From: an uncultured Thermotogae bacterium
GTDB lineage: Bacteria > Bipolaricaulota > Bipolaricaulia > UBA7950 > UBA9294
Direction of reading: 5' to 3'
Length of the DNA: 64,000 nt
Assembly: GCA_964608345.1 (NCBI GenBank)
Contig: CAZSNG010000006.1
Coordinates: 1,317-65,316, forward strand
The notes under the pieces were generated by a model that was given only the letters and a program-made list of their open reading frames with translations, ran no database searches and was not told the DNA's origin. This document shows, one piece after another, positions 25,464 to 47,478 of the stretch (its first letter is position 1; every line of letters begins with the position of its first letter). The position numbers were made by a program, and so were the translations under genes.

Positions 25464-26018
25464 ATGGATAATGAAACGGTTGGCGGGACGATCCGGAAGC
25501 TTCGCCAGGAGCGGGCATGGACCCTGGAAGAGCTCTCATCTCGGTGCGGCCTCTCCGTCGGCTTCCTTTCCCAGGTCGAGCGGGGACTCTCCTCGTTGTC
25601 GGTGGCATCACTGAAGACAGTCACCGATGCGCTGGACGTGCCTCTTGCACAGTTCTTCTCGCTGCCGGACACCGACCGGCCTGCGATCACCAAGGCCGGC
25701 GAGCCGCACTATGTGATGCGGATCGGCAGCTCGGAGATCACGTACTCGATGCTGTCGGGAGCCCGACCGAACCGAACGATGGAGGCGTTCATCGCGGAAT
25801 ACCCGCCCGACTACGTTCCGCCGGTTCTGCCGCACGAGGGCGAGGAGTTCGCCTACGTCCTCTCCGGCAAGATCCTGTTGGTCTTCGAAGACGAGGAACA
25901 TGTTCTCGAACCGGGTGACTCGTTCCAGATCGACTCCAACCGACCGCACACCGTGCGCAACCTGGAGGCCGAGCCTGCGCGCATTCTCTGGGTGCAGACA
26001 CTAATGATTCTTCGCTGA
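25464..26018 (+). CDS. XRE-family HTH plus cupin transcriptional regulator (PuuR/SutR-like)
   Basis: IRKLRQERAWTLEELS...SVGFLSQVERG; cupin HEGEEFAYVLSG...PHTVRN. Confidence 0.95.
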   Translation: MDNETVGGTIRKLRQERAWTLEELSSRCGLSVGFLSQVERGLSSLSVASLKTVTDALDVPLAQFFSLPDTDRPAITKAGEPHYVMRIGSSEITYSMLSGARPNRTMEAFIAEYPPDYVPPVLPHEGEEFAYVLSGKILLVFEDEEHVLEPGDSFQIDSNRPHTVRNLEAEPARILWVQTLMILR

Positions 26019-26035
26019 TTGAGGAGGAGCAACGC

Positions 26036-28093
26036 ATGCCGAAGCGTCTGGCGATCGACATTGGGGGGACGTTCACCGATCTCGTGGCTCTCGATGAGAC
26101 CACGGGAGAGATCACACTAGAGAAGGTACTCACCACGCCGGGCAACTACGCCGACGGCGTAACACACACCATCCGCAAGAGCCAACTCGATCCCAAGACG
26201 GTAGCGCAGTTCGTTCATGGAACCACAGTGGTGATCAACGCGCTCACCGAGCGCCACGGAGCAAAGGTTGCTCTGATCACGACCCGCGGATTCCGTGATG
26301 TTCTCGAGATTCAGCGTGGCAATCGAACCGATATGTACAACCTGCTCTACGAGAAGCCGAAGCCGTTCGTCCCGCGCCGCCATCGGTTTGAGGTCAGCGA
26401 GCGCGTGTCCTTCCGCGGTGACGTCCTGATCCCGCTCTCCGAGGACGAGGTGACCGAGATTGCCGGGGAGTGCCGTCGAGAAGAGATCGAGGCGATCGCT
26501 GTCTGCTACATCCATGCCTACGCGAACCATGCGCACGAGATTCGGACTCGCAAGATCATTGAGCGGATCTGTCCCGACGTGGCTGTGACGTTGTCGCACG
26601 AGATCACCCAGGAGTGGCGCGAGTACGAGCGGACCAACACCACGGTGATGAACGCGTACGTCAAGCCGGCGACGACCCGATACCTCTCGACGCTCGATCA
26701 GGAGCTTTCGACAATGGGGTTGGCCGGGCCGAAGTACGCGATGCAATCGAACGGCGGGACGACGACGTTCGCCCAGGCTCAGCGAGTTCCGATCCATCTC
26801 ATCGAATCAGGACCGGTCGGGGGCGTGATCGGCGCCGGCGTGCTCTCCGAGGCGACCGGCGACACGAGCATGATCTCGTTCGACATGGGCGGGACAACCG
26901 CCAAGGTGAGCCTGATCGATCACGGGCAGATCAGGATTGACACCGACTACCACCTGGAGAAGAGCACGACGTGGGCCGGCTACCCGCTGCGGATCCCGGT
27001 CGTCGACATCGTCGAAGTCGGTGCCGGCGGCGGGTCGATCGCTTGGATCGACGCTGGCGGCGCGCTCCACGTCGGACCACGGAGTGCCGGCGCCGATCCA
27101 GGTCCCGCCTGCTATGACCTTGGCGGGATCGAGCCGACGGTGACCGACGCGAACCTAGTGACCGGACGGCTGAGCGCCGACTACTTCCTCGGAGGGCAGA
27201 TGAAGCTGAACACGGCCAAGGCGGAGGCCGCGGTCCGCAAGATCGCCGAGCAGTTCGGTCTTTCGGTCACCGATGCGGCTCTCGGGATCATCCGACTGAC
27301 CAACGCGAACATGCAGGCGGCCCTCGAGCGCGTCTCCATTGAGCGCGGCTACGATCCGCGCGATTTCACCCTCGTCGCCAACGGGGGAGCCGGCGGTCTG
27401 CACGGAGCGACCCTGGCGCGCGAGTTGAAGCTGCGGAAGGTGATCGTTCCGCAGGCGCCGGGCCAGTTCTCGGCCTGGGGGATGCTGATGACGAATCTGC
27501 GGCACGATTTCATCCGCACCCGCGTGTCGGACTGCTCCGCCGCCAACCTGGGGGAGATTCGCCGCACATTCGCGGAACTCGATCGGGAGCCAGCCGAGCA
27601 ATTCGCCGCCGAGGAGTTCCCGAAGGACCGTGTCTGGATCGAGCGTTTTCTCGATCTGCGCTATCGGGGGCAGGAGCACACCGTGCGGACACCCATCCGG
27701 GCCGACGAACTCGACGGCGGTCAACTCGATTCGGTCATCGCCCGCTTCCACGACCTGCATGAGCAGGCCTACTCGTTCCGGCAGGACGACCCAGTGGAGA
27801 TCGTCAACTTCCATGTCGTCGGGTGGGGGCGGGTCGACAGGCCCGATTTCGTGCCACGCGAGATTGAAGGAGCCAACAGGGACGCGGCCGATAAGGGAAC
27901 GCGACCGGTCGTCTTCGAGGGCGAGGGAACGGTCGAGAGCCGCGTCTTCGAGCGCGGACTCCTTCCGACCGGAGAGACGATCGACGGTCCCGCAGTGATC
28001 GAAGAGCCGGCGTGCACCACCATCGTCTGCCCGTCGCAACGGGTGGAGGTCGACGAGTTCGGCAATCTCGTTATCACGGAGGTGGCGGCATGA
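26036..28093 (+). CDS. Hydantoinase/5-oxoprolinase A subunit (ATP-binding, HyuA-like)
   Basis: IDIGGTFTD, HGTTVVINAL, EYERTNTT, ESGPVGG, DMGGTTA, GAGGGSIA, GPRSAGADPGPACY, PTVTDAN. Confidence 0.95.
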   Translation: MPKRLAIDIGGTFTDLVALDETTGEITLEKVLTTPGNYADGVTHTIRKSQLDPKTVAQFVHGTTVVINALTERHGAKVALITTRGFRDVLEIQRGNRTDMYNLLYEKPKPFVPRRHRFEVSERVSFRGDVLIPLSEDEVTEIAGECRREEIEAIAVCYIHAYANHAHEIRTRKIIERICPDVAVTLSHEITQEWREYERTNTTVMNAYVKPATTRYLSTLDQELSTMGLAGPKYAMQSNGGTTTFAQAQRVPIHLIESGPVGGVIGAGVLSEATGDTSMISFDMGGTTAKVSLIDHGQIRIDTDYHLEKSTTWAGYPLRIPVVDIVEVGAGGGSIAWIDAGGALHVGPRSAGADPGPACYDLGGIEPTVTDANLVTGRLSADYFLGGQMKLNTAKAEAAVRKIAEQFGLSVTDAALGIIRLTNANMQAALERVSIERGYDPRDFTLVANGGAGGLHGATLARELKLRKVIVPQAPGQFSAWGMLMTNLRHDFIRTRVSDCSAANLGEIRRTFAELDREPAEQFAAEEFPKDRVWIERFLDLRYRGQEHTVRTPIRADELDGGQLDSVIARFHDLHEQAYSFRQDDPVEIVNFHVVGWGRVDRPDFVPREIEGANRDAADKGTRPVVFEGEGTVESRVFERGLLPTGETIDGPAVIEEPACTTIVCPSQRVEVDEFGNLVITEVAA

Positions 28094-29826
28094 CCGCAAA
28101 GCATGCGATCGATCCCTTCACCGTCGAAGTCATCAAGCGGGCCTTGATCTCTGCCGCCGAACAGATGTTCGTCGCTCTCGGCCGCACTGCCAAGAGCTCA
28201 GTCATCTACGAGGTGCTCGACTACGGATGCGCGATTACAGACGCCGCCGGCCGGATGATCGCCCAGGCGAACGGGATCCCGGCCTTCATCGGTGTGCTGA
28301 GCGATGCGGTGCTCGACGTGATCGAGAAGTTCGGCCTCGACGGCCTCGAAGAGGGCGACATCATCATCACCAACGATCCGTACATGGGTGGAGCGACGCA
28401 CCAGAACGACGCCGTGCTGATCCTTCCGATCTTCTACCAAGGCAAGCCGGTGATGTTCTCGGCGAGCAAGGCGCATTGGAACGACATCGGAGGCAAGGAT
28501 CCCGGAAGCTGGTCGCCGAACGCGACCGATATCTATCAGGAAGGGCTCCAGTTCCCGGTGGTCAAGATCTTCAATGCCGGCGTGGAGAACCGCGACATCG
28601 TCGACATCCTCTCCCGCAACGGACGGATCCCGGAGATGACGCTCGGCGACATGCGAGCCCAGGCCGCCTCCCTGCGCGTCGCGGCGAAACGGGCTCAGCA
28701 GATCTGCGACAAGTACGGGCTCGACACGGTCCTAGAGTCGGTTGAGGTCTATCTCAAGCAGGGGCGGCAAGAAGCGCTGGCCGAACTGAAGAAGTTCCCG
28801 AAGGGTGAGTACACCGCCGAGGAGCACATCGACGACGACGGACTCGGCGGCGACCCAGTATTGGTGAAGGTCAAGGTGACGATCAGCGAAGACGAGTTCG
28901 TCATCGACTACACTGGAACCGGCGGGACCTGCCGCGGGCCGATCAACAGCCCTCTCTCGGTGCTGATGTCGACGGCCAAGTTCGCCTTCCAGTCGGTCCT
29001 CGCCCCGCACGCCGACCCGAACGAGGGATTCTTCTCGCCGCTGAGGGTGATCGTCCCCGAGGACACGGTGTTCAACCCAAAGCGGCCGGCGCCGGTCAGC
29101 ACCTACTGGGAGTCGGACGCCTACGCAGGCGACGTGGTCTGGCGAGCGCTCGCCGACGCGATCCCGGACCGGATCACGGCCGGACACTTCCTGAGTGTCT
29201 GCGGCACGATCGTCAGCGGGATCGATGACGAGTCCGGCGAGTGGTTCTTCTCGGTCGAACCGAACGCCGGTGGCTGGGGTGCCGGACGCGGCAAATCGGG
29301 CGAGAGCGGCCTGGTCTGCTCGGGCGACGGGGAGACCTACATCCTGTCGATCGAAGTGGCCGAGACTCGCTACCCGATGATCGTCGATCAGTTCTCACTC
29401 AACATCGCCGACGGCGGACACGGGGAATGGCCCGGCGGCCACGGCCTGATCAAAGACTACCGGATCACCAATTCGCAGGCCCTGGTCACCGCGAGCTTCG
29501 GACGGAGCACGTTCCCGCCTTGGGGGCTGGCTGGTGGACAGGACGGGACCCCGAACGACGTCGAGATCCGAAAGGTCGATGGGAGCGTCGAGCGACGAGG
29601 TCGCTTCTCGAGCGAAGTGCTCGGGGACGGCGACATCGTCCGGTTCATCACCGGCACCGGCGGAGGCTACGGCGATCCGCGCGAACGGGATCCGAAACTC
29701 GTCCTCAGCGACGTACTGGACGGCTACGTCTCGGTCGAGGCAGCCCGCGACGTCTACGGCGTCGTCCTCGAAGGCGACCCGCTCCGGGTTGACGACGACA
29801 AGACCACGGCGGCCAGGGGAGGATAG
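28090..29826 (+). CDS. Hydantoinase/5-oxoprolinase B subunit (HyuB-like)
   Basis: IITNDPYMGGATHQND, KAHWNDIGG, DIYQEG, GGWGA, TGTGGGYGDP; ATGA overlap with the A subunit. Confidence 0.95.
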   Translation: MTAKHAIDPFTVEVIKRALISAAEQMFVALGRTAKSSVIYEVLDYGCAITDAAGRMIAQANGIPAFIGVLSDAVLDVIEKFGLDGLEEGDIIITNDPYMGGATHQNDAVLILPIFYQGKPVMFSASKAHWNDIGGKDPGSWSPNATDIYQEGLQFPVVKIFNAGVENRDIVDILSRNGRIPEMTLGDMRAQAASLRVAAKRAQQICDKYGLDTVLESVEVYLKQGRQEALAELKKFPKGEYTAEEHIDDDGLGGDPVLVKVKVTISEDEFVIDYTGTGGTCRGPINSPLSVLMSTAKFAFQSVLAPHADPNEGFFSPLRVIVPEDTVFNPKRPAPVSTYWESDAYAGDVVWRALADAIPDRITAGHFLSVCGTIVSGIDDESGEWFFSVEPNAGGWGAGRGKSGESGLVCSGDGETYILSIEVAETRYPMIVDQFSLNIADGGHGEWPGGHGLIKDYRITNSQALVTASFGRSTFPPWGLAGGQDGTPNDVEIRKVDGSVERRGRFSSEVLGDGDIVRFITGTGGGYGDPRERDPKLVLSDVLDGYVSVEAARDVYGVVLEGDPLRVDDDKTTAARGG

Positions 29827-29833: not shown

Positions 29834-30352
29834 ATGGAACTCCACGAGGCGATCCGCGGCAGACGGAGTGTGCGACGGTTCCTGCAGGAGCCGATTGAAC
29901 GACCGATTCTCGACCGGCTCATCGAGGCGGCGATGTGGGCTCCGTCCGGCGGGAATGCGCAAACGTGGCGTTTCGTCGTGGTCACCGAGCCGGAGAGGAT
30001 CGCAAAGCTTCGGACGGTGAGTCCGGGCCTGCTTGGCGATCCCCCCGTGGTGATTGCTGTCTGTCAGGATCTTGCCGAAGCCAGGGCCAAGGGGAGTACG
30101 CTCGGAGAGACGTTCCTCGCCCCGCTCGACTCGGCGATGGCGACGCAGAACCTTCTTCTGGCGGCACACGCCGAGGGGCTTGGTACGTGCGTGATCGCGT
30201 CGTTCCACAAGCGAGCGGTCGGCCGTCTGCTCGAGCTCCCGGATCGGGTCGAGGTGGTGCTGCTCGTCTCCGTCGGACGACCGGCCGAGTCACCGAACCC
30301 GCCGTCGCGAAGGACCGAGGGGATCGTCCATTATGAGGCGTTCCATGGATAG
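29834..30352 (+). CDS. Nitroreductase-fold flavoprotein, AlbA-like (cyclodipeptide oxidase subunit A)
   Basis: RRSVRRF, WAPSGGNAQTW, LRTVSPGLLGDP.VIAVCQD (resembles recalled AlbA LRAFSPGVLGTP..VVACVD), AMATQNLLLAAHAEGLGTC; followed by an AlbB-like gene. Confidence 0.85.
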   Translation: MELHEAIRGRRSVRRFLQEPIERPILDRLIEAAMWAPSGGNAQTWRFVVVTEPERIAKLRTVSPGLLGDPPVVIAVCQDLAEARAKGSTLGETFLAPLDSAMATQNLLLAAHAEGLGTCVIASFHKRAVGRLLELPDRVEVVLLVSVGRPAESPNPPSRRTEGIVHYEAFHG

Positions 30353-30671
30353 AGGTTCGCTTGAGCGCAAGGTCTTTGATCTGATCGGCTACATGGCGAC
30401 CAGCGGGCGGAACCTGATCGACGAGACGCCGCTCTACGGTCCGTTTCGTTTGGTCGACGCGGCGAGTCGACTGATCGAGATTCTCGAAGGTGAAGGCATC
30501 GGAAGCTCCCGCCTCTCCACGCTGCGCGAGCGAATCGATGCAGGGAAGTACTCCGTGATGGTCGACGCGGAGGAATACAAGGACTACCTCGATGGCGTCG
30601 TCGACGCGGTCGTCGACCACATGGACAGTGACACGAGCAAAGGAGGTGAAGCTTCGCCCACAGGCACGTGA
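30345..30671 (+). CDS. DUF6092 / AlbB-like protein (cyclodipeptide oxidase subunit B)
   Basis: YMATSGRNLIDETPLYGPFRLVDAASRL...RLSTLRERID aligns by memory with AlbB YLLSSGRGLLEEPADYGIYRCTDGARRA...RLTAVRERLD; 8-nt overlap with the upstream gene. Confidence 0.8.
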   Translation: MDRGSLERKVFDLIGYMATSGRNLIDETPLYGPFRLVDAASRLIEILEGEGIGSSRLSTLRERIDAGKYSVMVDAEEYKDYLDGVVDAVVDHMDSDTSKGGEASPTGT

Positions 30672-30715
30672 AGAAGGGAGGGAACGACAGCACAAGCGCA
30701 CGGGAGGTGCAGGAA

Positions 30716-32287
30716 GTGAAGAGAATACTGATTGTTGCACTGGCAGCAGTGATGGCATTTGGCGTGATCGGACTTGCGGATGGCGCCCTTCGGGTGACGT
30801 TCGCCTGGCCGACGCACATCGATCCGGCGGTCGGATCGGACTTCTCCAGTTCGTCGGCGTTCGTCAACCTGTACGATACGCTCGTCTATCCGACGTCGAG
30901 CGGCGATCCGGTTTCGCACGTCGCCACGAGCTGGGACGTCACCGAGGACTCGCTCCAATGGACGTTCCACCTTCGCGACGACGTCTACTTCCACGACGGC
31001 ACGAAGCTGACGGCGAACGACGTGAAGTACTCGATGGACCGCCTAACGACGATCGGTGAGGGCTACGGCTTCCTGTTTATCGGCCGCATTGCCAGCACCG
31101 AAGTCATCGACGAAACCACGGTCCGGTTCAACCTAGCGGCCCCATTCGGCCCGTTCCTCTCAACCCTCTATCGTCTGTACATCGTCAACATGGCCCTGGT
31201 CGAGGCGAACACGGTCACGCCGGGTGCTTACGGTGACTTCGGTGATTACGGGAAGACGTTCCTCGTCGACAACGACGCCGGGAGCGGACCGTATATCGTC
31301 GAGGAGTTCCGCGTCGAGGAAGAGCTGGTGATGACCAAGAACTCAAGCTACTGGCTCGACATCGACGCCGATGCGCCGGACGAGGTTCGCTTCATCGGCA
31401 CGACCGAGACGGCCACCGTCCGAACGATGATGGCCCGCGGAGAACTGGAGATCTCCGACCAGTGGCAGACGAGCGAGGCGATTCAGGCACTCGACGCGAT
31501 GGACGGGATCGACATCGCCGCGTTCTCGCCGGGGACGATCTTCTACATGATGATCAACATGAAGATCGCGCCGACCGACGACATCCACTTCCGCAAGGCG
31601 ATGGCCTACGCGACCGACTACGACACCGTCATCACCCACATCTTCCCCGACACGTACCAGGCCCGCGGTCCGGTCCCGCAGAACATCCCGGGCGCCGATC
31701 CAACGGTCTTCCAGTATTCGCTCGATTTGGACAAGGCGCGCGAGGAGCTGGCGTTGTCGAAGTATGATCCGGCCGACTACGAAGTCGAACTCCACTGGAT
31801 CGCCGAAGTGCCGGACGAGGAGAAGGTGGCGCTGATGTTCTTGGCGAACATGGCCGAGATCGGGATCAACGTCAAGGTCGTGAAGGTGCCGTGGATGTCG
31901 GTCGTCGAGGAGATGGGCGCGCTCGAGACGAGCCCGCACATCGTGACGATCTTCGACTCCTCGCACTACCCGGAGGCCGGTTCGCTGATCGAATCCCGCT
32001 ACCATTCCAGCTCCGCCCCCACGTGGGAGCAGAACGAGTGGCTGCTCGACGAGGCACTTGATGCGATGATCGAATCCGCGATCAACACGGTCGATCAGGC
32101 AGAGCGGTTCGCGAGGTACGCCGGATTGCAGCACATGATCACGGCCCTTTGCCCGACGATCTTCCTGTTCGAGCAAGTGGAGAAGCACGCCTATCTGGCG
32201 GACAAGATCGATTGGCCGACCGCTCGCGGCGAGGTCAATCCGGTCATGGGCTACAACATGGCGGCTCGCTTCATCAAGATCAAGTAG
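30716..32287 (+). CDS. Peptide ABC transporter substrate-binding protein (family 5, DppA/OppA-like)
   Basis: Sec signal peptide, NLYDTLV, FHLRDDVYFHDGTKLTANDVKYS, GSGPY, FRKAMAYA; GGAGGT RBS before GTG. Confidence 0.95.
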   Translation: MKRILIVALAAVMAFGVIGLADGALRVTFAWPTHIDPAVGSDFSSSSAFVNLYDTLVYPTSSGDPVSHVATSWDVTEDSLQWTFHLRDDVYFHDGTKLTANDVKYSMDRLTTIGEGYGFLFIGRIASTEVIDETTVRFNLAAPFGPFLSTLYRLYIVNMALVEANTVTPGAYGDFGDYGKTFLVDNDAGSGPYIVEEFRVEEELVMTKNSSYWLDIDADAPDEVRFIGTTETATVRTMMARGELEISDQWQTSEAIQALDAMDGIDIAAFSPGTIFYMMINMKIAPTDDIHFRKAMAYATDYDTVITHIFPDTYQARGPVPQNIPGADPTVFQYSLDLDKAREELALSKYDPADYEVELHWIAEVPDEEKVALMFLANMAEIGINVKVVKVPWMSVVEEMGALETSPHIVTIFDSSHYPEAGSLIESRYHSSSAPTWEQNEWLLDEALDAMIESAINTVDQAERFARYAGLQHMITALCPTIFLFEQVEKHAYLADKIDWPTARGEVNPVMGYNMAARFIKIK

Positions 32288-32307: not shown

Positions 32308-32336
32308 GGGCGGGCGGGCCGCGAGCCCGCTCGCCC
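32308..32336 (+). other. GC-rich intergenic hairpin after the substrate-binding protein gene (mRNA stabiliser/attenuator)
   Basis: GGGCGGGCGGGC-CGCGA-GCCCGCTCGCCC, 12-bp stem with one G-U, no U tract. Confidence 0.6.
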
Positions 32337-40095: not shown

Positions 40096-41188
40096 GCCGA
40101 TCGATCATGAGAAGCGAATCGTTGCGTTGCAGCGCGAGATAGCGACCGCATCGGTCGACCTCGTCCTCCTCTTCCATCGCGACAACATCCGCTATTTCAC
40201 CGGGTTTCGGATCAACAAAGTCATCTCGTCGGTCCTCGCTGTTCCGCGGAGCGGGCCGCCGACGTACGTTGTGGCACGGCTCGACATGGAGCGCGCCAAG
40301 CGCGACTGCTGGATCGAGCAGCTGATCGCGTTTCCGGAGGACACGCCAGACCCTCTCTCCGCCCTGGATCCGCTCCTTCCGGCGCCGGTGAAGCGGATCG
40401 GCGTCGAGCATGGAACGATCACGCTCGAGCAGGCCGAGTTCATCAAGGGTCGGCGAGCAGCGGAGACCGTGTTGCTCGATGCCCAGCCGCTCGTCGATCG
40501 CCTCCGCGTGATCAAGAGCGTGGCCGAGATCGAGCGGCTGCGTGAATCGGCGCGGATCGCGAGTCGGGTCATGCAGCGGATTCAGGCCGAGCTCCGGCCC
40601 GGGCTGATCGAGGCGGAATTGGCGGCGTGGACCGAGCACCTGCTGGTCAAGGAAGGGGCCGAGGGCTCGTCGTTCGAGGCATTCATGACCTCGGGCGCCA
40701 ACGCGTGGCTCCCACAACGTGTCCCGGTGCGCAAGCCGATCCGAGACGGGGAAATGATCCTCCTCGACATGGGTGGGGTCTACGACGGCTACTGCTCCGA
40801 CATCACGAGAACGCTTTCGACCAACGGCCTCTCACCCGACCAACGGCGGCTATTCGACAGCGTTCGGCGGGCGTATGAGCGCGCGCTTGACGCAGTGCGG
40901 TCGGGTGTGACGGCTGAGGAGGTCGATGCCGCGGCCCGAGACCTGCTGCGCGCCGAGGGGTACGGCGAGTACTTCACCCACCTCACCGGACACGGGATCG
41001 GCCTGTCGACGCACGAGGGCCCGATCGTCGACGAGCACGTCGAGACCGTCCTCGCACCGGGGATGGTCTTCACGGTCGAGCCCGGGGCGTACGTACCGGG
41101 TGTCGGCGCGGCGCGGATCGAGGACATGGTGTTGGTCACCGAAACGGGGTACGAGATCCTGACCGACGCCCCACGCGAGATCGAGTAG
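40082..41188 (+). CDS. M24 Xaa-Pro peptidase (prolidase/aminopeptidase P)
   Basis: LLDMG, YCSDITRT, HLTGHGIGLSTHE, TVEPG, RIED metal ligands. Confidence 0.95.
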   Translation: MSTCKPIDHEKRIVALQREIATASVDLVLLFHRDNIRYFTGFRINKVISSVLAVPRSGPPTYVVARLDMERAKRDCWIEQLIAFPEDTPDPLSALDPLLPAPVKRIGVEHGTITLEQAEFIKGRRAAETVLLDAQPLVDRLRVIKSVAEIERLRESARIASRVMQRIQAELRPGLIEAELAAWTEHLLVKEGAEGSSFEAFMTSGANAWLPQRVPVRKPIRDGEMILLDMGGVYDGYCSDITRTLSTNGLSPDQRRLFDSVRRAYERALDAVRSGVTAEEVDAAARDLLRAEGYGEYFTHLTGHGIGLSTHEGPIVDEHVETVLAPGMVFTVEPGAYVPGVGAARIEDMVLVTETGYEILTDAPREIE

Positions 41189-41214: not shown

Positions 41215-42357
41215 GTGGGCGTGAGGGAGATCCTTGGAGAATGGCAGGTCACCGACTACCGCGTGATCGACAGGGAGGCGCTGGCTGAGATTACGCTCGG
41301 GGCGTCGGTCCTAGCGACGGGAGGTGGAGGGGACCCCGAGATCGGCCTGCTGTGGGCCTACAATGTCGTCGATCAGGGAAACGAGATTCTTCTGATCGAC
41401 CCCGACGCGATCCCCGACGAGGCGCTGGCGACGATTGCGGGCTGCCTCGGTGCGGCGCTCGTTCTGACCGAGAAGCCCCCGAACGGCCAGGAACTGTTCT
41501 GGTGCTACGATCGCCTTCGCCGCTACATGGGAAGGTCGGTGCAGGCGGTGATCCCGGCCGAGGCTGGAGGCGTCAACACGCCGGTCCCGATGGCTGTCGC
41601 CGGTGCGGTCGGCGTGCCGGTGATCGACGCCGACGGAATGGGGCGAGCCTTTCCCGAGCTTCAGATGACTTCGTTCTACACCCACGGCTGCCAGCCGGCT
41701 CCGGTGGCACTGGCCAACGAGAAGGGGCACGTCACGATCTGCGATTCCGAGGACGGTCTGCTGACTGAGCGGATCGCCCGAGCCGCGGCGATGGCCTATG
41801 GCGGGATCTCATGGATCGCCGGCTATCCGTTGACCGGGCGGCAGATTCGGGAGACCGCGATCTTGCGTTCGGTCACCCTGGCGTGGAATCTCGGCAGACG
41901 GATCTTCGAGGCGCGCCGGAAGCACCTCGATCCGATCGAGGAGACGCTGAATCTCACCAACGGCTACTGCGCCTTCACCGGGAAGATCGTCGACATCAAC
42001 CGCGAATTCGGGGCCGAAAAGACGAAGGGATTCTCCCTCGGCGAGATCACGATGGAGGGGATTGACGCGGACAAAGGGCGGACAGCCCGGATCGGGTTCC
42101 AGAACGAGTGGCTGACCTTCGACGTCGATGGCCGAATCCTCTGTCTGCCGCCGGATCTGATCTGCATCCTCGATCCGGCGACCGGCGAGCCGATCCGCAC
42201 CGACATCGTCAAGTACGGCTACCGCGGCTCGGTGATCCTGATCCCGGCTCATGAGCGGATGCGGACGCCGAAGGGCATCGAAACGTTCGGTCCGCGCTAC
42301 TTCGGTTACGAGTACGACTACGTCCCGGTCGAGCAGCTACGGGAGGGCATCGCCTGA
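41215..42357 (+). CDS. DUF917-family protein, paralog 2
   Basis: LATGGGGDPEIGLLW, PAEAGGVN, DADGMGRAFPELQMTS, GFQNEW, LPPDLI, TGEPIRTD. Confidence 0.9.
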   Translation: MGVREILGEWQVTDYRVIDREALAEITLGASVLATGGGGDPEIGLLWAYNVVDQGNEILLIDPDAIPDEALATIAGCLGAALVLTEKPPNGQELFWCYDRLRRYMGRSVQAVIPAEAGGVNTPVPMAVAGAVGVPVIDADGMGRAFPELQMTSFYTHGCQPAPVALANEKGHVTICDSEDGLLTERIARAAAMAYGGISWIAGYPLTGRQIRETAILRSVTLAWNLGRRIFEARRKHLDPIEETLNLTNGYCAFTGKIVDINREFGAEKTKGFSLGEITMEGIDADKGRTARIGFQNEWLTFDVDGRILCLPPDLICILDPATGEPIRTDIVKYGYRGSVILIPAHERMRTPKGIETFGPRYFGYEYDYVPVEQLREGIA

Positions 42358-43346
42358 TGAGGAACCGCAGGACGCTTCCGTTCGTCGACACGCACACCGC
42401 TGGTGAGCCGACTCGAATCGTCCTCGACGGGTTTCCGCAGCCACCCGGCGCGACGATGGAGGAGCGTAGGCAGTGGCTGAGCGTGCACGCTGACGGTCTA
42501 CGACGGCTCGTTCTCCAAGAGCCCCGCGGGCACCGTGACATGTTCGGCGCTGTGGTCTCCGAACCGGTCGACCCGACGTGTGATGCCGGCGTGTTCTTCA
42601 TCGAGAGCGGCGGGTATCTCAGAATGTGTGGGCACGGAACGATCGGCGTCGTCACGGCACTTGTCGCGTTGGGACGGTGCAGCGGGCCCGACGTAGTCCT
42701 CGACACGCCGGCCGGCCGAATCGCTTGCCGCGTCCACGGCGGCGGCGTGCCGCCGGAGGCGGTCACCATGCGGAATGTGCCCTCCTTCTACCTCGGAGAC
42801 GTCGATGTCGAAGGGACCACGGTGTCCCTCGCATTCGGAGGCAACCTCTTCGGACTGGTCGACGTCGCGGCGGCCGGTCATCGGGTCGACCGAACCGAGA
42901 TTGTCCCGCTCGTTCAAACGGCGCTCGAGCTGCGAGCGCGCGTGAACGAGCTCGGACCTTGGATGCATCCGGCCAGCGGAGAGGAGATGTGCGTTGAGCT
43001 GATCGAGTTCTTCGGGGAGGGGAACCCACCGCGAAACCTGGTTGTCTTCGGGCACGGCCAGGTCGACCGCTCCCCATGCGGGACCGGAACGAGCGCCAAG
43101 ATGGCGACCCTCCACGCCCGCGGCACGTTGGGTGTGGGAGAACCGTATCCCTACCGAAGCGTCCTCGACACGGAGTTCGTCGGACGAATCGTCGAAGAGA
43201 CAGACGTCGGAGACCATCGCGGGATCGTTCCTGAGATCACCGGAACAGCGCACATCATCGCGACGGGGGACCTGATCCTCGACGAGGACGATCCGTTCCC
43301 CGAAGGGTTTGAGCTGATGCCCGGGGCAGATCGCGGACTATTTTGA
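42357..43346 (+). CDS. Proline racemase / hydroxyproline epimerase family, two-Cys type
   Basis: DTHTAGEPTR, EPRGHRDMFG, YLRMCGHGT, DRSPCGTGTSA. Confidence 0.95.
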   Translation: MRNRRTLPFVDTHTAGEPTRIVLDGFPQPPGATMEERRQWLSVHADGLRRLVLQEPRGHRDMFGAVVSEPVDPTCDAGVFFIESGGYLRMCGHGTIGVVTALVALGRCSGPDVVLDTPAGRIACRVHGGGVPPEAVTMRNVPSFYLGDVDVEGTTVSLAFGGNLFGLVDVAAAGHRVDRTEIVPLVQTALELRARVNELGPWMHPASGEEMCVELIEFFGEGNPPRNLVVFGHGQVDRSPCGTGTSAKMATLHARGTLGVGEPYPYRSVLDTEFVGRIVEETDVGDHRGIVPEITGTAHIIATGDLILDEDDPFPEGFELMPGADRGLF

Positions 43347-43400: not shown

Positions 43401-44012
43401 ATGAACGAGATCGGCGTTCGCCTTCGAGAGGCGCGGCTCCAGCATGGCTGGACGCTCGATGGACTCTCCGAACGTTGCGGTCTGTCGCAGAGCTTCCTAT
43501 CGCAGGTCGAGCGGGGTCTATCGACCTTGTCCATCGTATCGCTATCCGCGATCTGCAAGGCCCTTGAGCTCCCGATCGAAACGCTCTTCTCGAGCAGCGC
43601 GCCCCTCGATCAGCGGTCGCCCCGGGTCACTACGGCCGATCGGCAGCTACTGATCCGGATTGGGGACTCCCCCGTGTCGTATCGCTATCTGAGCGGGCAA
43701 CTTCCCTCGTCGCCGATCGCTGAGCTGCTGATCGCGGAGTTCCCTGTTGGTTGCGACCAGCGCGACAGCACGCATGAGGGACAGGAGCTGGGCTACATCC
43801 TCGAGGGCGCACTCGACTTGCGTGTTGGGGAGGAGGAGCATCGCCTGGCTGTCGGTGACAGCTATCGGATCGATGCGTCCGAGCCGCACGACTACCGGAC
43901 GTCGGCCGATCTTGGCGCGAGGGTCTTGATGGCGGTGACTCAACGGTTCATCGAGGTCCCCCGCGAGGACGCATTGGGACGGGAGAGCCCTGCCCCCAAC
44001 GGGGCCACGTGA
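43401..44012 (+). CDS. Second XRE-HTH plus cupin regulator
   Basis: LREARLQHGWTLDGLS...SQSFLSQVERG; THEGQELGYILEG; PHDYR. Confidence 0.93.
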   Translation: MNEIGVRLREARLQHGWTLDGLSERCGLSQSFLSQVERGLSTLSIVSLSAICKALELPIETLFSSSAPLDQRSPRVTTADRQLLIRIGDSPVSYRYLSGQLPSSPIAELLIAEFPVGCDQRDSTHEGQELGYILEGALDLRVGEEEHRLAVGDSYRIDASEPHDYRTSADLGARVLMAVTQRFIEVPREDALGRESPAPNGAT

Positions 44013-44028: not shown

Positions 44029-46227
44029 ATGGGACGAATCGAACAGCACCCGATCGTACGCAAGGAATGGAAGAATCCGTTTTCGTTCTCGTTCGACGGG
44101 AAGGAGATCGAAGCGTATCCCGATGAGATGATCTCCTCGGCGCTCTTCGCCGCGGGGATCCGCGTCTTCGGGCATCACCATCGCGATGGTGCGCCGCAGG
44201 GGATCTACTGCGCCAATGGCCAGTGCGCCCAGTGTCTCGTCTTGGCGGACGGCATCCCCGTGAAGGCATGCATGACGCCGACGGCGCCCGGCATGTGCGT
44301 CGAGCCGGTCGACGGGTTGCCGGTGCTGCCGGCGCTCGATCGGGTTCCGGAGATGTCCGAGGCCGAAACGATCTCCGTGCCGGTCCTCATCCTCGGTGGC
44401 GGCCCGGCGGGAATGTCGGCGGCGCTCGAGATCGGCGGTCGCGGCGTCGAAACGATTCTCGTCGACGACAAGGACAGGCTCGGCGGGAAGCTCGTCCTCC
44501 AGACGCACCGCTTCTTCGGATCGATCAACGCGGTGCATGCAGGGACGCGGGGCATCGACATCGGCACGCGCCTCGCGCGTGAGGTCGAGGCGCTCGACTC
44601 GGTTGACGTCTGGCTGAACGCCACCGCCCTTGCCGTCTTCGCCGACAGGAAGGTCGGGATCTTGCGTGGCGACAGGGTTGTCCACGTGGAGCCGGAGATT
44701 CTCCTCGTCGCCACCGGCGCGCGGGAGAAGTCGCTCGTCTTCAACGGCAACACCCTTCCCGGTGTCTACGGGGCGGGCGCGTTCCAAACGCTCGTCAACC
44801 GGGACCTCGTCCGCGCCGCCGACCGCCTGTTCATCGTCGGTGGCGGGAATGTCGGGCTGATCGCCGGGTATCACGCGCTCCAGGCGGGCATCGACGTGGT
44901 CGGACTCGTCGAGGCGCTGCCCGAGTGCGGCGGCTACAAGGTGCACAAGGACAAGCTCGCACGGATGGGTGTGCCGATCTACACCTCACATACGATCGTC
45001 TCCGCCAACGGATCGGATCGGGTCGAGTCGGTGACGATCGCGGAGGTGGACGGATCCTTCCGGCCGGACGCTGGTTCGGAGCGATCGTTCGACTGCGACA
45101 CGGTGTTGGTCGCCGTCGGACTCGATCCGGTCGATGAGTTCCTCGATGCCGCGCGCCGTTTCGACCTGCCGGTGTTCGCCGCCGGCGATGCCGAGGAGAT
45201 CGCCGAGGCGTCGGCCGCGATCTTCTCCGGACGGATCCAAGGCGTCGAGATCGCCCGCCATCTCGGCGTGTCCGGCGACGCGATCCCGGACGATTGGCGG
45301 TCGATGTCCGAGATCCTCCGCTCGAAGCCGGGAAGCATCGTGGAGCGTCCGGGGCCGGAGAGCGTGGCGGGAGTCCGACCCGTCTTTCACTGCACACAGG
45401 AGATCCCGTGCAACCCGTGCTCGTCGGTCTGCCCGCAGGGGCTGATCCGGATCGACGAGGAGGACATCCGCGCGCTTCCGCAATACGTCGCCGACGAAGT
45501 CGAGAAGGCATGCCTTGGGTGCGAACGGTGCATCACGATCTGCCCCGGCCTCGCGATCACGCTTCTGGACGGCCGCGACGATCCGGCGAACCCGCTGGTC
45601 ACGATTCCGTTCGAGTACGAGCCGGACCGACTGGCCGTTGGCGATGATGTCGAGGTCCTCGATGCGGTCGGGGAGCTGCTTGGCTCCGTGCCCGTCGTCG
45701 AACGGAAAGCAATCCCGGCGAACGACCGAACCGTCCTGATCGCGTTCCGCGCGCCGGCCGAGATCGCCGCGCGAATCGCCGGGATCCGCCTGCAAGAGCC
45801 GTGGGTCGGGGATTCTCGCGCCGAAGCGATTGAGCCGCTTCGGGACACTGACATCGTCTGTCGATGCGAGCGGGTGACCGCCGGGGAGATCCGCGAACTG
45901 ATCCGCGCCGGCATCCGAGACGTGAACGAGATCAAGACGATCACGCGAGCAGGCATGGGCGCCTGTGGGGGAAAGACGTGCCAGTCGTTGATCGGGCGCC
46001 TCTTTCGTGAGGAGGGGGTGTCCCTCGATGAGGTGACGGACCAGGTTCCTCGACCGCTGTTCGTCGAGGTCCCGCTCGGTTCGTTCGCCGGGATCGTCTC
46101 GAGCGTCGAATCGGTGCGCTCGTTCGAATCGGGCGGGGATCGTCTTGAGCCGCGAATGGGTCCGTCCGGCTCGAGCCGGGCAGGGAGCCCTGCGAACTCC
46201 CTGCGCTGGAGGTGCTCTCGTGACTAG
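44029..46227 (+). CDS. Fused [2Fe-2S]/FAD-NAD oxidoreductase/2x[4Fe-4S]/BFD protein; alpha-type subunit of a proline/hydroxyproline dehydrogenase or sarcosine/opine oxidase-like complex
   Basis: CANGQCAQC...C, GGGPAG, ATGARE, GGGNVG, CTQEIPCNPCSSVCP, CLGCERCITICP, CRCE...GMGACGGKTC. Confidence 0.88.
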   Translation: MGRIEQHPIVRKEWKNPFSFSFDGKEIEAYPDEMISSALFAAGIRVFGHHHRDGAPQGIYCANGQCAQCLVLADGIPVKACMTPTAPGMCVEPVDGLPVLPALDRVPEMSEAETISVPVLILGGGPAGMSAALEIGGRGVETILVDDKDRLGGKLVLQTHRFFGSINAVHAGTRGIDIGTRLAREVEALDSVDVWLNATALAVFADRKVGILRGDRVVHVEPEILLVATGAREKSLVFNGNTLPGVYGAGAFQTLVNRDLVRAADRLFIVGGGNVGLIAGYHALQAGIDVVGLVEALPECGGYKVHKDKLARMGVPIYTSHTIVSANGSDRVESVTIAEVDGSFRPDAGSERSFDCDTVLVAVGLDPVDEFLDAARRFDLPVFAAGDAEEIAEASAAIFSGRIQGVEIARHLGVSGDAIPDDWRSMSEILRSKPGSIVERPGPESVAGVRPVFHCTQEIPCNPCSSVCPQGLIRIDEEDIRALPQYVADEVEKACLGCERCITICPGLAITLLDGRDDPANPLVTIPFEYEPDRLAVGDDVEVLDAVGELLGSVPVVERKAIPANDRTVLIAFRAPAEIAARIAGIRLQEPWVGDSRAEAIEPLRDTDIVCRCERVTAGEIRELIRAGIRDVNEIKTITRAGMGACGGKTCQSLIGRLFREEGVSLDEVTDQVPRPLFVEVPLGSFAGIVSSVESVRSFESGGDRLEPRMGPSGSSRAGSPANSLRWRCSRD

Positions 46228-46345
46228 GACCTACGATGTGATTAGCGTCTCGAACGCCGGATGGGACGATGCGTTCGAGCCGGGCAGGGAATCGCTTGGA
46301 TTCCCTGCGTCGGGAGGGCTAGCGTGAGTCGGACGTACGATGTCG
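46141..46345 (+). repeat. Imperfect ~104-bp tandem duplication, each unit carrying hairpin + RBS + GTG start
   Basis: Both copies share TCGAGCCGGGCAGGGA...TCCCTGCG..GGAGG.GCT..CGTGA.T.GGAC.TACGATGT; GTG codons at 46220 and 46324. Confidence 0.8.
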
Positions 46346-47478
46346 TGGTTGTGGGGGCGGGGAGTGTGGGGGTTCCGGCCGCGTGGGCGATGGCGCGATC
46401 GGGGCTGGAAGTCCTCGTCGTTGACCGGCTCGCCAGCCCCGGCCAGGGGTCGAACAAGACCGCCATCGGCGGGATGCGCGCCACCCACTCCGAGCCGGCC
46501 AAGATTCGCGTCTGCCTTCGATCGCTCGAGATCGCATCGACGTGGCGCGACACGTACGGAGACGACATCGACTGGCGAAGCGGCGGGTACTCGTTCGTCG
46601 CGTACGGGGACCGCGAGGCCCGCATCCTCGAGGGATTGATCGAGACGCAACAGGCGAGCGGCCTGGACATCGACTGGCACGATCGCGACGACCTGCTCGG
46701 GAAGATCCCTGCGCTGGCTCGTGATGGGCTGCTCGGTGGGACGTTCTCCCCCGGAGACGGGATGTGCTCACCGCTCCTTCTCGGCCACGCGATGTACCAG
46801 CAGGCGTGCCGCGCGGGCGCTGACTTCCGCTTCCACGAGGGCGTGACCGGGATCGAGGTAGAAGGGGAACGCGTCCGCGCAGTCGTGACCGACAGCGCTC
46901 GATACGAGGCGCCGGTCGTCGTGAATGCGGCCGGTGCGTGGGCGAACGAGATCGGGGCGCTGGCCGGGCTGGAGCATCCGATCGAACCCGACTCGCACGA
47001 GGGCGGGATCACCGAGCCCGTGGCGCCGTTCCTCGGACCGATGATCGTCGACATCCGGCCGAGCGAGCACGCGGCGAACTGCTACTTCTTCCAGCTGGCG
47101 ACCGGGCAGATCGTCTTCGCGCTCACGCCGAAGCCGATCGTCCCCGGATTCGACTGCGACGAGACGAGCGACTTCCTACCGATCGTCGCACGCCGGATGA
47201 TCCAGCTGGTTCCGCGGCTCGCCGGTCTGCGTGTCCGGCGGACGTGGCGCGGTCTCTACCCGATGTCGCCCGACGGCGCTCCGCTCGTCGGTCTCTCGAA
47301 GGACATCGGAGGCTACGTGATGGCGATCGGAATGTGCGGTCACGGCTTCATGCTCGGGCCGGGTCTCGGCGAGATCCTCGATCGACTCGTCCGCGACGAT
47401 CTGACGGACGACGATCGAGCCATCCTCGACGGCCTTTCACCGATCCGGTCGTTCGAGGGTCAGGCGGCACTGAAGTGA
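46324..47478 (+). CDS. FAD-dependent oxidoreductase (DAO/SoxB family); beta subunit of the dehydrogenase complex
   Basis: YDVVVVGAGSVG, VVNAAGAW, TWRGLYPMSPDGAP, GMCGHGFMLGP. Confidence 0.92.
   Translation: MSRTYDVVVVGAGSVGVPAAWAMARSGLEVLVVDRLASPGQGSNKTAIGGMRATHSEPAKIRVCLRSLEIASTWRDTYGDDIDWRSGGYSFVAYGDREARILEGLIETQQASGLDIDWHDRDDLLGKIPALARDGLLGGTFSPGDGMCSPLLLGHAMYQQACRAGADFRFHEGVTGIEVEGERVRAVVTDSARYEAPVVVNAAGAWANEIGALAGLEHPIEPDSHEGGITEPVAPFLGPMIVDIRPSEHAANCYFFQLATGQIVFALTPKPIVPGFDCDETSDFLPIVARRMIQLVPRLAGLRVRRTWRGLYPMSPDGAPLVGLSKDIGGYVMAIGMCGHGFMLGPGLGEILDRLVRDDLTDDDRAILDGLSPIRSFEGQAALK

Follow-up and report, generated by a model that had tools for sequence, protein, structure and literature searches.

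A conserved gene cluster of Candidatus Bipolaricaulota with AlbAB-like, HyuAB-like, and proline-metabolizing enzymes, a candidate route for the catabolism of proline-containing diketopiperazines

Introduction

2,5-Diketopiperazines (DKPs; cyclic dipeptides) are widespread; some are signals or antibiotics of microbes, and others arise in food and fermentation or through the abiotic breakdown of peptides. As a class, they are resistant to ordinary peptidases. The Xaa-Pro type is the one met most often, both among natural DKPs and among those formed abiotically from peptides, and it epimerizes readily. DKP-degrading bacterial strains were described in 2013, with the enzymes not identified, and our literature searches and our copy of the Protein Data Bank (PDB) yielded no DKP hydrolase, no DKP catabolic pathway, and no cyclodipeptide oxidase (CDO) acting in DKP catabolism. 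This agrees with an earlier reading of the DNA considered here from its letters alone (the sequence-only reading), which knew of no characterized pathway of this kind. That DNA, referred to below as the window, is a stretch of 64,000 nucleotides from an uncultured bacterium of the Bipolaricaulota (assembly GCA_964608345.1, contig CAZSNG010000006.1, positions 1,317 to 65,316). We describe in it a gene cluster that combines a CDO-like enzyme pair with a peptide-type importer, candidate ring-opening enzymes, peptidases, and enzymes of proline metabolism and that may serve in the catabolism of imported, mainly proline-containing DKPs.

Parts of this cluster resemble several described systems. The hyuABCE genes of Pseudomonas sp. 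NS671 combine HyuAB-type ATP-dependent ring opening with a hydantoin-family racemase, and on the octopine-type Ti plasmid, the HyuAB-type agropinic-acid lactamase AgaFG is encoded in a catabolic operon with an ATP-binding cassette (ABC) importer and a DAO-type oxidoreductase. Our literature searches found no report of a HyuAB family member that opens DKPs. At the proline end, PH1363/PH1364 of Pyrococcus horikoshii form an alpha4beta4 L-proline dehydrogenase (PDH1; PDB code 1y56), and Thermococcus litoralis possesses the proline racemase TlProR together with alpha4beta4 and alpha-beta-gamma-delta L-proline dehydrogenases in a documented proline/hydroxyproline cluster (PMC4364671).

Characterized CDOs are specific for the DKP scaffold (PMC11055893). 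In the study by Andreas and Giessen (Nat Commun, 2024; PMC11055893), 88% of 274 CDO operons are without a cyclodipeptide synthase (CDPS), and these non-CDPS operons are enriched in proteins of the hydantoin racemase family (PF01177), DUF917 proteins (PF06032), ABC di/oligopeptide transporters, and peptidases. This gene neighborhood class is thereby already published. The article assigns it no function, suggesting purine/hydantoin metabolism or novel metabolites, and leaves the role of the 88% of operons that are synthase-less as a question for which the Bipolaricaulota variant described below gives a concrete hypothesis (PMC11055893).

Results

Architecture of the cluster

The cluster comprises about 22 genes. 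Pfam and NCBIfam scans identified the families of the genes in a run at positions 25464 to 47478 of the window, all on the + strand (coordinates of genes below refer to the window and to this strand unless the - strand is indicated). In order, they include genes for a regulator, HyuA and HyuB, an AlbA/AlbB-like pair, a solute-binding protein (SBP) with the two permeases and two ATPases of a Dpp-type ABC importer, a hydantoin-racemase-family enzyme, a second HyuA-like protein (HyuA2), a DUF917 protein (DUF917a), an 89-amino-acid (aa) protein, an M24 peptidase, a second DUF917 protein (DUF917b), a proline racemase (ProR), a second regulator, and two flavoproteins. Spacing between genes ranges from -14 to +78 bp, with 8 junctions overlapping. 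These overlaps include those of HyuA with HyuB (7 nucleotides [nt]), of the AlbA-like with the AlbB-like gene (8 nt), of HyuA2 with DUF917a (4 nt), of the AlbB-like gene with the SBP, of the racemase with HyuA2, of the small open reading frame (ORF) with M24, and of the DUF917b stop with the ProR start; the second ATPase gene (35264) and the racemase gene (36263) are separated by a 3-bp gap. The G+C content of the window is 62 to 68% throughout, and third-position G+C delineates a continuous + strand series of genes from 23015 to about 49300. The sequence-only reading had described a co-oriented, tightly packed ~22-kb run of these families, and in this it was correct, there being no gap of more than 78 bp. 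Its families stand, but the M24 peptidase had been misplaced (it sits between the two DUF917 genes), the conserved 89-aa ORF had been overlooked, and the neighborhood begins further upstream, with a NicX-like gene at 23015 and an M20 peptidase gene at 24172.

Conservation in relatives and in other phyla

The gene order is retained in dozens of contigs of Candidatus Bipolaricaulota/Acetothermia, with protein identity of ~90 to 94% to the window in the closest contigs and down to ~50% in others; the sequence-only reading had named a lack of synteny in relatives as grounds for discarding it, and the genes were found to be syntenic. Homologs of the AlbB-like (DUF6092) protein at 57 to 90% identity are mostly metagenomic, those with names coming from Candidatus Bipolaricaulota/Acetothermia metagenome-assembled genomes. 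Annotated close relatives repeat the series regulator, HyuA, HyuB, AlbA, AlbB, SBP, permeases, ATPases, racemase, HyuA2, DUF917, small ORF, and M24. One relative (L001; L numbers designate loci compared with the window) has the same genes upstream of the regulator, and another (L003) has unrelated ilv/leu genes there, for which reason we place the beginning of the unit at or just before the regulator gene. The downstream part of the cluster was followed in a metagenome scan centered on DUF917b, which gave 76 loci. The synteny counts here and below are limited by flanks of 10 kb, and as near-duplicate and related contigs are included, the counts are not fully independent. All 19 loci with an ortholog and at least 5.5 kb downstream have the proline racemase gene next, and 14 of them have both flavoenzyme genes. 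Where enough upstream sequence was present, the genes for M24, the small ORF, DUF917a, HyuA2, the racemase, and the ATPase were found in 20 to 21 of 21 loci. With such counts, the arrangement is not a product of chance. The second regulator is at its position in only 8 of 19 relatives.

A wider scan centered on AlbB, with one genome per species, recovered 46 loci from many anaerobic lineages, of which the 30 of at least 12 kb were used for counts. Of the genes counted in these, those for ABC ATPases are the most frequent (22 loci), followed by those for the binding protein with permeases and for DUF917 (18 loci each), the racemase (16), a NicX-like protein (11), and HyuB (9). ORF maps of distant loci (Anaerolineae, Atribacterota, Bathyarchaeia, Bacillota, and Thermodesulfobiota) share a recurring core of a NicX-like protein, a PepT-like M20 peptidase, AlbA, AlbB, a Dpp-type importer, one to three racemase paralogs, and DUF917 with or without HyuA2. 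The NicX-like gene stands beside AlbAB in loci of Bipolaricaulota and five other lineages, often as two tandem copies, and its ortholog in L001 carries a precomputed match to PF26233 (NicX); the M20 gene lies immediately 5' of AlbA in L031, L033, L035, L037, and L005. Because they are part of this cross-phylum core, we consider the NicX-like (23015) and M20 (24172) genes to belong to the system. The adjacency of HyuAB, AlbAB, and ABC genes recurs in a separate lineage (L043) whose AlbB is 40% identical to that of the window.

The AlbAB-like pair

The AlbA-like gene (29834 to 30352) encodes an FMN (flavin mononucleotide) nitroreductase-fold subunit whose top PDB match is AlbA of Streptomyces noursei (8uc3_A; E = 6.9e-33), and the AlbB-like gene (30345 to 30671) encodes a DUF6092 protein (5.9e-26) whose best PDB match is AlbB of the same enzyme, a CDO that forms filaments (8uc3_D; 7e-9). 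The pair is a true homolog of AlbAB, as the sequence-only reading had proposed. The catalytic roles described for the S. noursei enzyme fall to Tyr37 of AlbB, to Cys115 of AlbA, which bears a covalent 8-alpha-S-cysteinyl FMN, and to Ser54, which assists the tyrosine (PMC11055893). Tyr37, Glu33, and Arg41 of AlbB correspond to Tyr35, Glu31, and Arg39 of the window protein and are invariant across 18 homologs; the equivalent of AlbB Met78 is also kept. In the AlbA-like protein, Cys135 is kept, Pro136 is replaced by Val, and Gly138 is replaced by Ala (Cys115 and Ser54 are considered in the Discussion). No CDPS or nonribosomal peptide synthetase (NRPS) domain was found in the scanned proteins of the 64-kb window or in annotated relatives, and the locus belongs to the non-CDPS CDO-like cluster class as delineated in 2024 (PMC11055893).

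Candidate ring-opening enzymes, the ring racemase, and the NicX-like protein

HyuA (26036 to 28093) is the ATP-binding subunit of the lactam hydrolase family, with Hydant_A_N, Hydantoinase_A, and Hydant_A_C at full length (model positions 1 to 176 of 176, 1 to 290 of 291, and 8 to 185 of 193), and HyuB (28087 to 29826) is its hydrolytic partner subunit, covering the Hydantoinase_B model from 1 to 519 of 519 (1e-167). The top PDB matches of HyuB are N-methylhydantoinase (7hk5_A; 4e-82) and the caprolactamase beta subunit (6yra_B; 2e-64), with no closer relative in the 2026 PDB copy. The pair belongs to the N-methylhydantoinase/caprolactamase clade, characterized members of which hydrolyze lactams or cyclic ureides with ATP.

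A second candidate system is formed by HyuA2 (37039 to 38643; 534 aa), a short HyuA-like ATPase that has the N-terminal and central domains (Hydant_A_N, 1.1e-35; Hydantoinase_A, 2.4e-34) without the C-terminal domain in Pfam scans, and by the DUF917/S-Me-THD-like proteins. Both copies of the latter, DUF917a (38640 to 39818) and DUF917b (41215 to 42357; 61% identity to copy a), have the S-Me-THD two-domain architecture (S-Me-THD_N and S-Me-THD_C) with full-length domain matches. The DUF917 relatives with an assigned name are all (S-methyl)thiohydantoin desulfurases, on which our literature search gave nothing usable; the NCBIfam models for these desulfurases score 61 to 62 bits with DUF917a (cut-offs, 440 to 450) and 95 bits with DUF917b (cut-off, 450). 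HyuA2 adjoins DUF917 in relatives, including L046, where the order is reversed. The 4-nt overlap and this adjacency even in reversed order are the evidence that suggests a functional pair of HyuA2 and DUF917a. The possibility that DUF917 is a divergent HyuB was rejected, hhalign giving a probability of 0.2% for 15 DUF917 sequences against 6 HyuB sequences. We infer a mechanism in which the HyuA-type kinase would phosphorylate the lactam oxygen and DUF917 would then hydrolyze the imidate formed, a reaction that would be comparable to that of DUF917 at the thio-imidate carbon of thiohydantoins.

The Asp/Glu/hydantoin-racemase-family enzyme (36263 to 37042; Asp_Glu_race, 2e-32) has both catalytic cysteines, its GCF and LGCT motifs aligning to the Cys positions mutated in 3qvk. 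Its PDB matches are a putative hydantoin racemase (3qvj; 6.5e-24), the epimerase OpaE (9qbx; 7e-21), and allantoin racemase (5lfd; 1e-15), and it is about equally close to the hydantoin/allantoin racemases and to OpaE. These solved relatives, OpaE among them, have ring C-alpha centers as their sites of action. Distant CDO-like loci have two to three racemase paralogs each (e.g., L033, 18836 to 20287; L038, 11848 to 12555, 14649 to 15377, and 19397 to 20173), and a 545-aa protein of L047 (7846 to 9483) is a fusion of two Asp/Glu/hydantoin-racemase domains. This multiplicity may mean that such loci deal with more than one stereoisomer or ring position.

The gene at 23015 to 24148 encodes a protein with a metallo-enzyme fold related to 2,5-dihydroxypyridine dioxygenase, its sole PDB match being NicX (7cn3_A; 1e-17); its start codon is uncertain, the relatives being 347 aa long. 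Where residues 265, 318, and 320 of the NicX chain align, it carries His, His, and Asp; we take these positions to be those of the iron ligands of NicX from Pseudomonas putida. Speculatively, it might be a metallohydrolase or a cleaver of an oxidized ring. The M20 peptidase (24172 to 25245; Peptidase_M20 and M20_dimer) matches the PepT-like model TIGR01883 at 283 bits, above the cut-off of 274. A role for it as an L-carbamoylase is unsupported, the PepT-like model being passed with no carbamoylase model among the matches listed. Pfam and NCBIfam scans found no CN_hydrolase in the cluster, and of the four peptidase-type genes present, none is carbamoylase-like.

The proline end of the cluster

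The M24 metallopeptidase (40082 to 41188; Peptidase_M24, 3.8e-66, with Creatinase_N) is prolidase-like, its best PDB matches being proline dipeptidases (3q6d, 3.8e-63; 1pv9, 2.9e-57), and has the complete set of five metal ligands (D, D, H, E, and E, in LDMGG, SDITRT, GHGIG, VEPG, and RIED). The proline racemase (42357 to 43346; Pro_racemase, 6.3e-90) is of the two-Cys type, with the catalytic pair Cys91 (MCGHG) and Cys241 (SPCGTG), and is closer to proline racemases in the PDB (7pb3, 2e-74; 6j7c, 1.6e-67) than to the PA1268-type enzyme (2azp, 5.6e-52). It has Phe at discriminating sites 1 and 5, which lie 28 residues before the first and 10 residues before the second cysteine; the spacing of site 5 was set from W241/C251 of TlProR and that of site 1 from what we take to be Phe102/Cys130 of the Trypanosoma cruzi enzyme. 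Site 1 is Ser/Val and site 5 Cys/Tyr in HypE, and site 5 is Trp in the bifunctional TlProR. Since Phe stands in place of Trp at site 5, the enzyme is predicted to be proline specific rather than bifunctional. Hydroxyproline as the end product is disfavored by the Phe/Phe sites and by the better match to proline racemases than to HypE-type enzymes. No DapA-type deaminase or aldehyde dehydrogenase was found in the cluster, the sole DHDPS (dihydrodipicolinate synthase)-family gene being 11 kb away.

The last two genes of the run encode a fused Fe-S flavoprotein of 732 aa (44029 to 46227) with Fer2_4 (2Fe-2S), Pyr_redox_2, 4Fe-4S, and BFD 2Fe-2S domains, whose C terminus is uncertain, the final ~50 codons being poorly conserved, and a DAO-family flavoprotein of the proline dehydrogenase beta type (46261 to 47478; DAO, 2.5e-58), whose true start is probably ~20 codons downstream, the relatives having 384 to 392 aa. 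The best PDB match of the DAO protein is the P. horikoshii L-proline dehydrogenase beta subunit (1y56_B; 172 bits, 2e-49), with an E value ~30 orders of magnitude below those of the matches that follow, to glycine/sarcosine oxidases (~5e-20); SoxB scores 54 to 55 bits. The Fe-S flavoprotein matches the alpha subunit of heterotetrameric sarcosine oxidase (2gag_A; 1.5e-20) and PH1363 (1y56_A; 4e-19). In NCBIfam, it scores 149 bits with the soxA family and the DAO subunit 74 bits with soxB. It is predicted to be the electron transfer partner of the DAO subunit, the two together forming a fused archaeal-type L-proline dehydrogenase. In L088 (12129 to 15426) and L090 (12378 to 14555), the Fe-S flavoprotein is split into three to four genes ahead of the DAO gene, which can be read as the alpha-beta-gamma-delta layout of archaeal proline dehydrogenases. 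The proline end proposed in the sequence-only reading was borne out by the Phe/Phe sites of ProR, the affinity of the DAO protein, and the prolidase-like M24 enzyme, and its proline-dehydrogenase-like flavoenzyme pair can be specified as the fused archaeal type. Proline is very likely a product of whatever the upstream enzymes process.

Importer, regulators, and a small conserved protein

The family-5 SBP (Dpp/Opp/Nik type; 30668 to 32287, start uncertain; SBP_bac_5, 5.9e-66) has an N-terminal membrane anchor or signal and reaches no NCBIfam equivalog, the best being NikA (109 bits; cut-off, 393). A GC-rich hairpin (32308 to 32336) with 12-nt arms that are 92% complementary lies just 3' of its gene. 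It is followed by a DppB-like permease (32366 to 33394; BPD_transp_1 and BPD_transp_1_N), a DppC-like permease (33396 to 34283; BPD_transp_1 and OppC_N), and DppD-like and DppF-like ATPases (34285 to 35274 and 35264 to 36259; each with ABC_tran and oligo_HPY). Two relatives have NCS1/PucR genes, at 4491 to 5801 in L105 and at 7291 to 8607 and 11992 to 13614 in L051, the PucR-type regulator of L051 being encoded beside its AlbAB-like pair.

Regulator 1 (25464 to 26018) combines HTH_3 (3.3e-10) with a cupin domain (Cupin_2, 1.3e-20) in a PuuR-like architecture, scores 72 bits with the PuuR model (cut-off, 211), and heads the cluster in relatives too. A sigma-70-like promoter match (TTGACA-16-TATAGT; 25427 to 25454, + strand), a consensus match in 11 of 12 positions, precedes it, and an AT-rich palindrome (25277 to 25302) lies within the 218-bp gap before it. 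Regulator 2 (43401 to 44012) also combines HTH_3 and cupin domains according to Pfam. The 89-aa protein (39826 to 40095) has no Pfam or NCBIfam match; its ORF separates DUF917a from M24 in more than 50 loci and encodes an invariant ESRVPK motif. A single-sequence AlphaFold2 model (pLDDT, 70) gave Lrp/AsnC-type helix-turn-helix (HTH) domains as its top Foldseek matches, none of them significant (E of 0.13 or higher); on this model, the protein is tentatively an HTH/winged-helix-like DNA-binding module.

Flanking genes

Upstream, an M42 aminopeptidase gene (21856 to 22923, - strand; Peptidase_M42, 2e-92) of the TET/lysyl-aminopeptidase-like type, which scores 250 bits with the NCBIfam archaeal lysyl aminopeptidase model (cut-off, 700), is divergently transcribed and peripheral to the neighborhood; it is found beside the cluster in L001, L012, L018, and L027 and is absent in L003. 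An Rfam scan found no RNA element inside the cluster. A thiamine pyrophosphate (TPP) riboswitch (21558 to 21665, - strand; 66.9 bits, above the gathering score) precedes genes for thiamin pyrophosphokinase (20815 to 21474, - strand) and an NMT1/THI5-type binding protein (19024 to 20031, - strand). This thiamine operon is unrelated to the cluster and marks the left border of the neighborhood. The left part of the window holds a BatA/VWA/DUF58/MoxR-type operon (2644 to 8769, - strand), a tRNA-Pro(TGG) gene (2482 to 2558, - strand), and a short phage-integrase-family ORF of 205 aa (12810 to 13427, - strand).

Downstream, an ORF of 313 aa without a Pfam match (47490 to 48431) begins 11 bp past the DAO stop; it follows the DAO gene solely in the closest relatives (L054, L057, L058, and L091), and its membership in the cluster is doubtful. 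A 950-bp noncoding gap 3' of the DAO gene was considered and rejected, this ORF occupying it. Farther away, and not adjacent, are genes for a beta-lactamase-family serine hydrolase (51134 to 52504, - strand), an SSF symporter (56561 to 58300, - strand), and a DHDPS-family protein (58896 to 59933), which could have a bearing on the use of D-peptides, proline, or hydroxyproline.

Discussion

A proposed route for imported Xaa-Pro diketopiperazines

What we observe is that the proteins belong to these families and retain catalytic residues and that the genes are tightly coupled and syntenic in relatives. On this basis, we propose that the locus serves in the catabolism of imported cyclic dipeptides, mainly proline-containing DKPs, a reading to which we give slightly less than an even chance; its substrate, the direction of every reaction, and the ring-opening enzyme are predicted from sequence. 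The Dpp-type binding protein and ABC importer would bring in the ring compound, and the two-Cys hydantoin/allantoin-family racemase would epimerize the ring C-alpha and so render isomers with D-residues usable. HyuAB would open the lactam ring with ATP, as possibly would the second, unrelated pair of HyuA2 and DUF917. The AlbAB-like flavoenzyme might dehydrogenate or reduce the ring C-alpha-C-beta bond, so that dehydro-DKPs could enter the route or oxidative ring cleavage could be prepared, perhaps via the NicX-like protein. The M24 peptidase would then cut Xaa-Pro, with the M20 PepT-like, M42, and NicX-like enzymes cutting other dipeptides, ProR would interconvert D- and L-proline, and the fused archaeal-type dehydrogenase would oxidize proline, with expression presumably controlled by the two HTH-cupin regulators and the small HTH-like protein.

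We favor catabolism over biosynthesis because there is no CDPS or NRPS in the window and the importer is SBP dependent. HyuAB, the prolidase-like M24 enzyme, ProR, and the proline dehydrogenase point to a peptide-like substrate that yields proline. The prevalence and ready epimerization of Xaa-Pro DKPs would explain why the cluster encodes a proline racemase as well as a ring epimerase, and the use of these DKPs would fit organisms living on necromass.

Several points weigh against this proposal. The AlbA-like protein has Asp in place of Cys115 and Gly in place of Ser54; according to the 2024 article, Cys115 is retained by CDPS-linked CDOA proteins only (PMC11055893), and we propose from the alignment that FMN is bound noncovalently in the window enzyme. 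The known CDOs require O2, as stated there, while the hosts here are presumed anaerobes, for which reason O2 is an unlikely electron acceptor, and the authors caution that non-CDPS enzymes may be no oxidases and may use hydantoin-like rings (PMC11055893). HyuA scores 559 bits with the caprolactamase alpha model and HyuB 274 bits with the CapB model, the cut-offs being 1000; since these scores are about half the equivalog cut-offs, the substrate of HyuAB is likely to be none of the known ones. HyuAB is missing from many CDO-like clusters of other phyla and is therefore outside the universal core, and the two ring-opening systems of the window appear redundant. The M24 enzyme scores 212 bits with PepQ (cut-off, 630), and its family also holds ring-opening and amidino hydrolases (ectoine hydrolase, 102 bits). 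ProR scores 301 bits with PRK13969 (cut-off, 556), still the best of six models. The equivalog level is thus reached by none of HyuA, HyuB, ProR, PepQ, and DUF917, all of which are below curated cut-offs. In L105 and L051, the Dpp-type ABC importer gives way to an NCS1 permease, and the DKP substrate itself is a prediction from sequence. The DKP route of the sequence-only reading accordingly gains from the synteny, the AlbAB homology, and the proline module and loses from the missing Cys115 and Ser54, the HyuAB scores, and the NCS1 permeases of relatives.

Alternative explanations

The alternative that survives best, unlikely in our judgment but to be taken seriously, is the degradation of 5-substituted hydantoins, or of some other small cyclic ureide or amidine, rather than of DKPs. 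In this view, HyuAB would be an ATP-dependent hydantoinase, the ring racemase would act on hydantoins, DUF917 would hydrolyze the hydantoin ring, and the AlbAB-like enzyme would work on the 2,4-imidazolidinedione scaffold. HyuAB and a hydantoin racemase occur together in hyuABCE of NS671, and the best solved relatives of HyuB and of the racemase are N-methylhydantoinase and the hydantoin/allantoin racemases, respectively. The relatives of DUF917 that have been named all act on thiohydantoin rings. The NCS1 family is named for the transport of cytosine, purine, uracil, thiamine, and allantoin, and a hydantoin-like substrate stays plausible because its permease replaces the ABC importer in L105 and L051, along with the PucR regulator of L051. 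Hydantoin- or allantoin-like substrates are also what the authors of the AlbAB structure propose for non-CDPS CDO-like enzymes (PMC11055893). Such a pathway would call for an N-carbamoyl-amino-acid amidohydrolase, but none is found in the cluster, where the M20 enzyme scores above the PepT-like threshold and CN_hydrolase is absent, and the scanned window proteins include no allantoinase, allantoicase, or other purine catabolism enzyme. The Dpp/Opp-type peptide importer is present in 18 to 22 of the 30 genome loci, and the coupled prolidase, proline racemase, and proline dehydrogenase fit no natural hydantoin.

Less probable still is a scavenging mosaic without a single substrate, in which separately acting peptide and amino acid modules lie side by side: an importer and peptidases for di/oligopeptides, HyuAB as a 5-oxoprolinase-like enzyme acting on pyroglutamate, and the ProR/dehydrogenase module, with the AlbAB-like pair, DUF917, and the racemase unrelated to these. 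The modules do come apart in places, HyuAB being missing in L012 and L013, proline genes being missing near AlbAB in other phyla, and L005 having AlbAB with the M20 gene only; ProR and L-proline dehydrogenase are a self-sufficient unit in Thermococcus, and the promoter-like site and the gene for regulator 2 suggest that transcription is divided into two or more units. However, overlapping stops and starts bridge the modules (AlbB-SBP, racemase-HyuA2, small ORF-M24, and DUF917b-ProR, with the 3-bp gap between ATPase and racemase), the order persists where orthologs are only ~50% identical, and the co-occurrence of AlbAB, the racemase, DUF917, the NicX-like protein, M20, and the importer in at least six phyla is hard to account for without a shared substrate.

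We regard as very improbable a conversion of creatinine or creatine to glycine via an N-methylhydantoinase (HyuAB), a creatinase (M24), and a sarcosine-oxidase-like pair, to which the annotation of the top PDB match of HyuB, the Creatinase_N domain of the M24 enzyme, and the soxA and soxB scores of the flavoproteins would lend themselves. Creatinase is not a metalloenzyme, and the retention of all five metal ligands by the M24 enzyme, together with its far better match to prolidases than to other M24 types, therefore argues against a creatinase. The DAO protein fits the L-proline dehydrogenase beta subunit far better than SoxB, the cluster encodes no creatinine deaminase or N-carbamoylsarcosine amidase and no amidohydrolase-type deaminase or isochorismatase-family amidase, and ProR, the AlbAB-like pair, and DUF917 would be without a role in a creatinine pathway. 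Biosynthesis of a modified DKP- or hydantoin-type secondary metabolite is equally hard to credit, for while the 2024 article describes characterized CDOs as tailoring enzymes of biosynthetic clusters and lists novel metabolites as a possibility for non-CDPS clusters (PMC11055893), neither the window nor the annotated relatives encode a CDPS, an NRPS, or another scaffold-forming enzyme, the SBP-dependent transporter is an importer, and the peptidases and proline-oxidizing enzymes are degradative. The remaining probability goes to something else.

Should the catabolism of imported Xaa-Pro DKPs be the correct reading, it would account for the use of a recalcitrant pool of peptide-derived carbon and nitrogen by abundant, uncultured anaerobes of the subsurface and would supply enzymes for DKP hydrolysis and epimerization. 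It is possible, though we hold it rather doubtful, that the cluster would then represent the first genetically defined microbial DKP catabolism, with a new substrate class for HyuAB, a second, nonhomologous ATP-dependent ring opener in HyuA2 and DUF917, and a catabolic, O2-independent role for the non-CDPS AlbAB-like enzymes (88% of CDO operons), possibly with ring cleavage by the NicX-like protein.

Comparison with known systems

Like AlbAB of S. noursei, which makes albonoursin (8uc3), the AlbAB-like enzyme of the window has two subunits encoded by overlapping genes and keeps Tyr37, Glu33, Arg41, Met78, and Cys135; unlike it, the window enzyme is without Cys115, Ser54, and an AlbC (CDPS) partner and is found in a catabolic context in a presumed anaerobic host. 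HyuAB shares with CapAB of Pseudomonas jessenii (6yra), N-methylhydantoinase (7hk5), and 5-oxoprolinase the combination of a three-domain HyuA with HyuB and the overlap of the two genes, but differs from CapAB in scoring about half the equivalog cut-offs. In comparison with hyuABCE and the aga operon, the window has no carbamoylase (hyuC) and has in addition the AlbAB-like pair, DUF917, the NicX-like protein, the prolidase, and the proline genes; with hydantoin utilization systems in general, it shares the two-Cys racemase and differs in having a Dpp-type ABC importer and no NCS1 permease. As in T. litoralis and P. horikoshii, a two-Cys ProR is encoded beside an archaeal-type dye-linked proline dehydrogenase in which a DAO-type beta subunit is paired with an Fe-S/flavin partner. 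Unlike in T. litoralis, the accessory subunits are fused (732 aa), site 5 of ProR is Phe and not Trp, and the unit is embedded in a ring-opening/peptidase cluster with no trans-3-hydroxy-L-proline (T3LHyp) dehydratase or pyrroline-2-carboxylate (Pyr2C) reductase.

The closest likeness is to the non-CDPS CDO-like clusters, with which the window shares an AlbA/AlbB-like pair without a CDPS, the lack of Cys115, and anaerobic hosts; Thermococcus, Clostridium, and Blautia are named among the organisms with such clusters (PMC11055893). To this class the window adds HyuAB, a prolidase-like M24 peptidase, a proline racemase, and a proline dehydrogenase, and the NicX-like and PepT-like M20 partners go unnamed in the sections of the article consulted here (PMC11055893). 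What is new here is accordingly the way the cluster is built in Bipolaricaulota, where HyuAB is joined by a complete module for the disposal of proline, together with the NicX-like and PepT-like proteins as cross-phylum partners and a specific hypothesis on the substrate.

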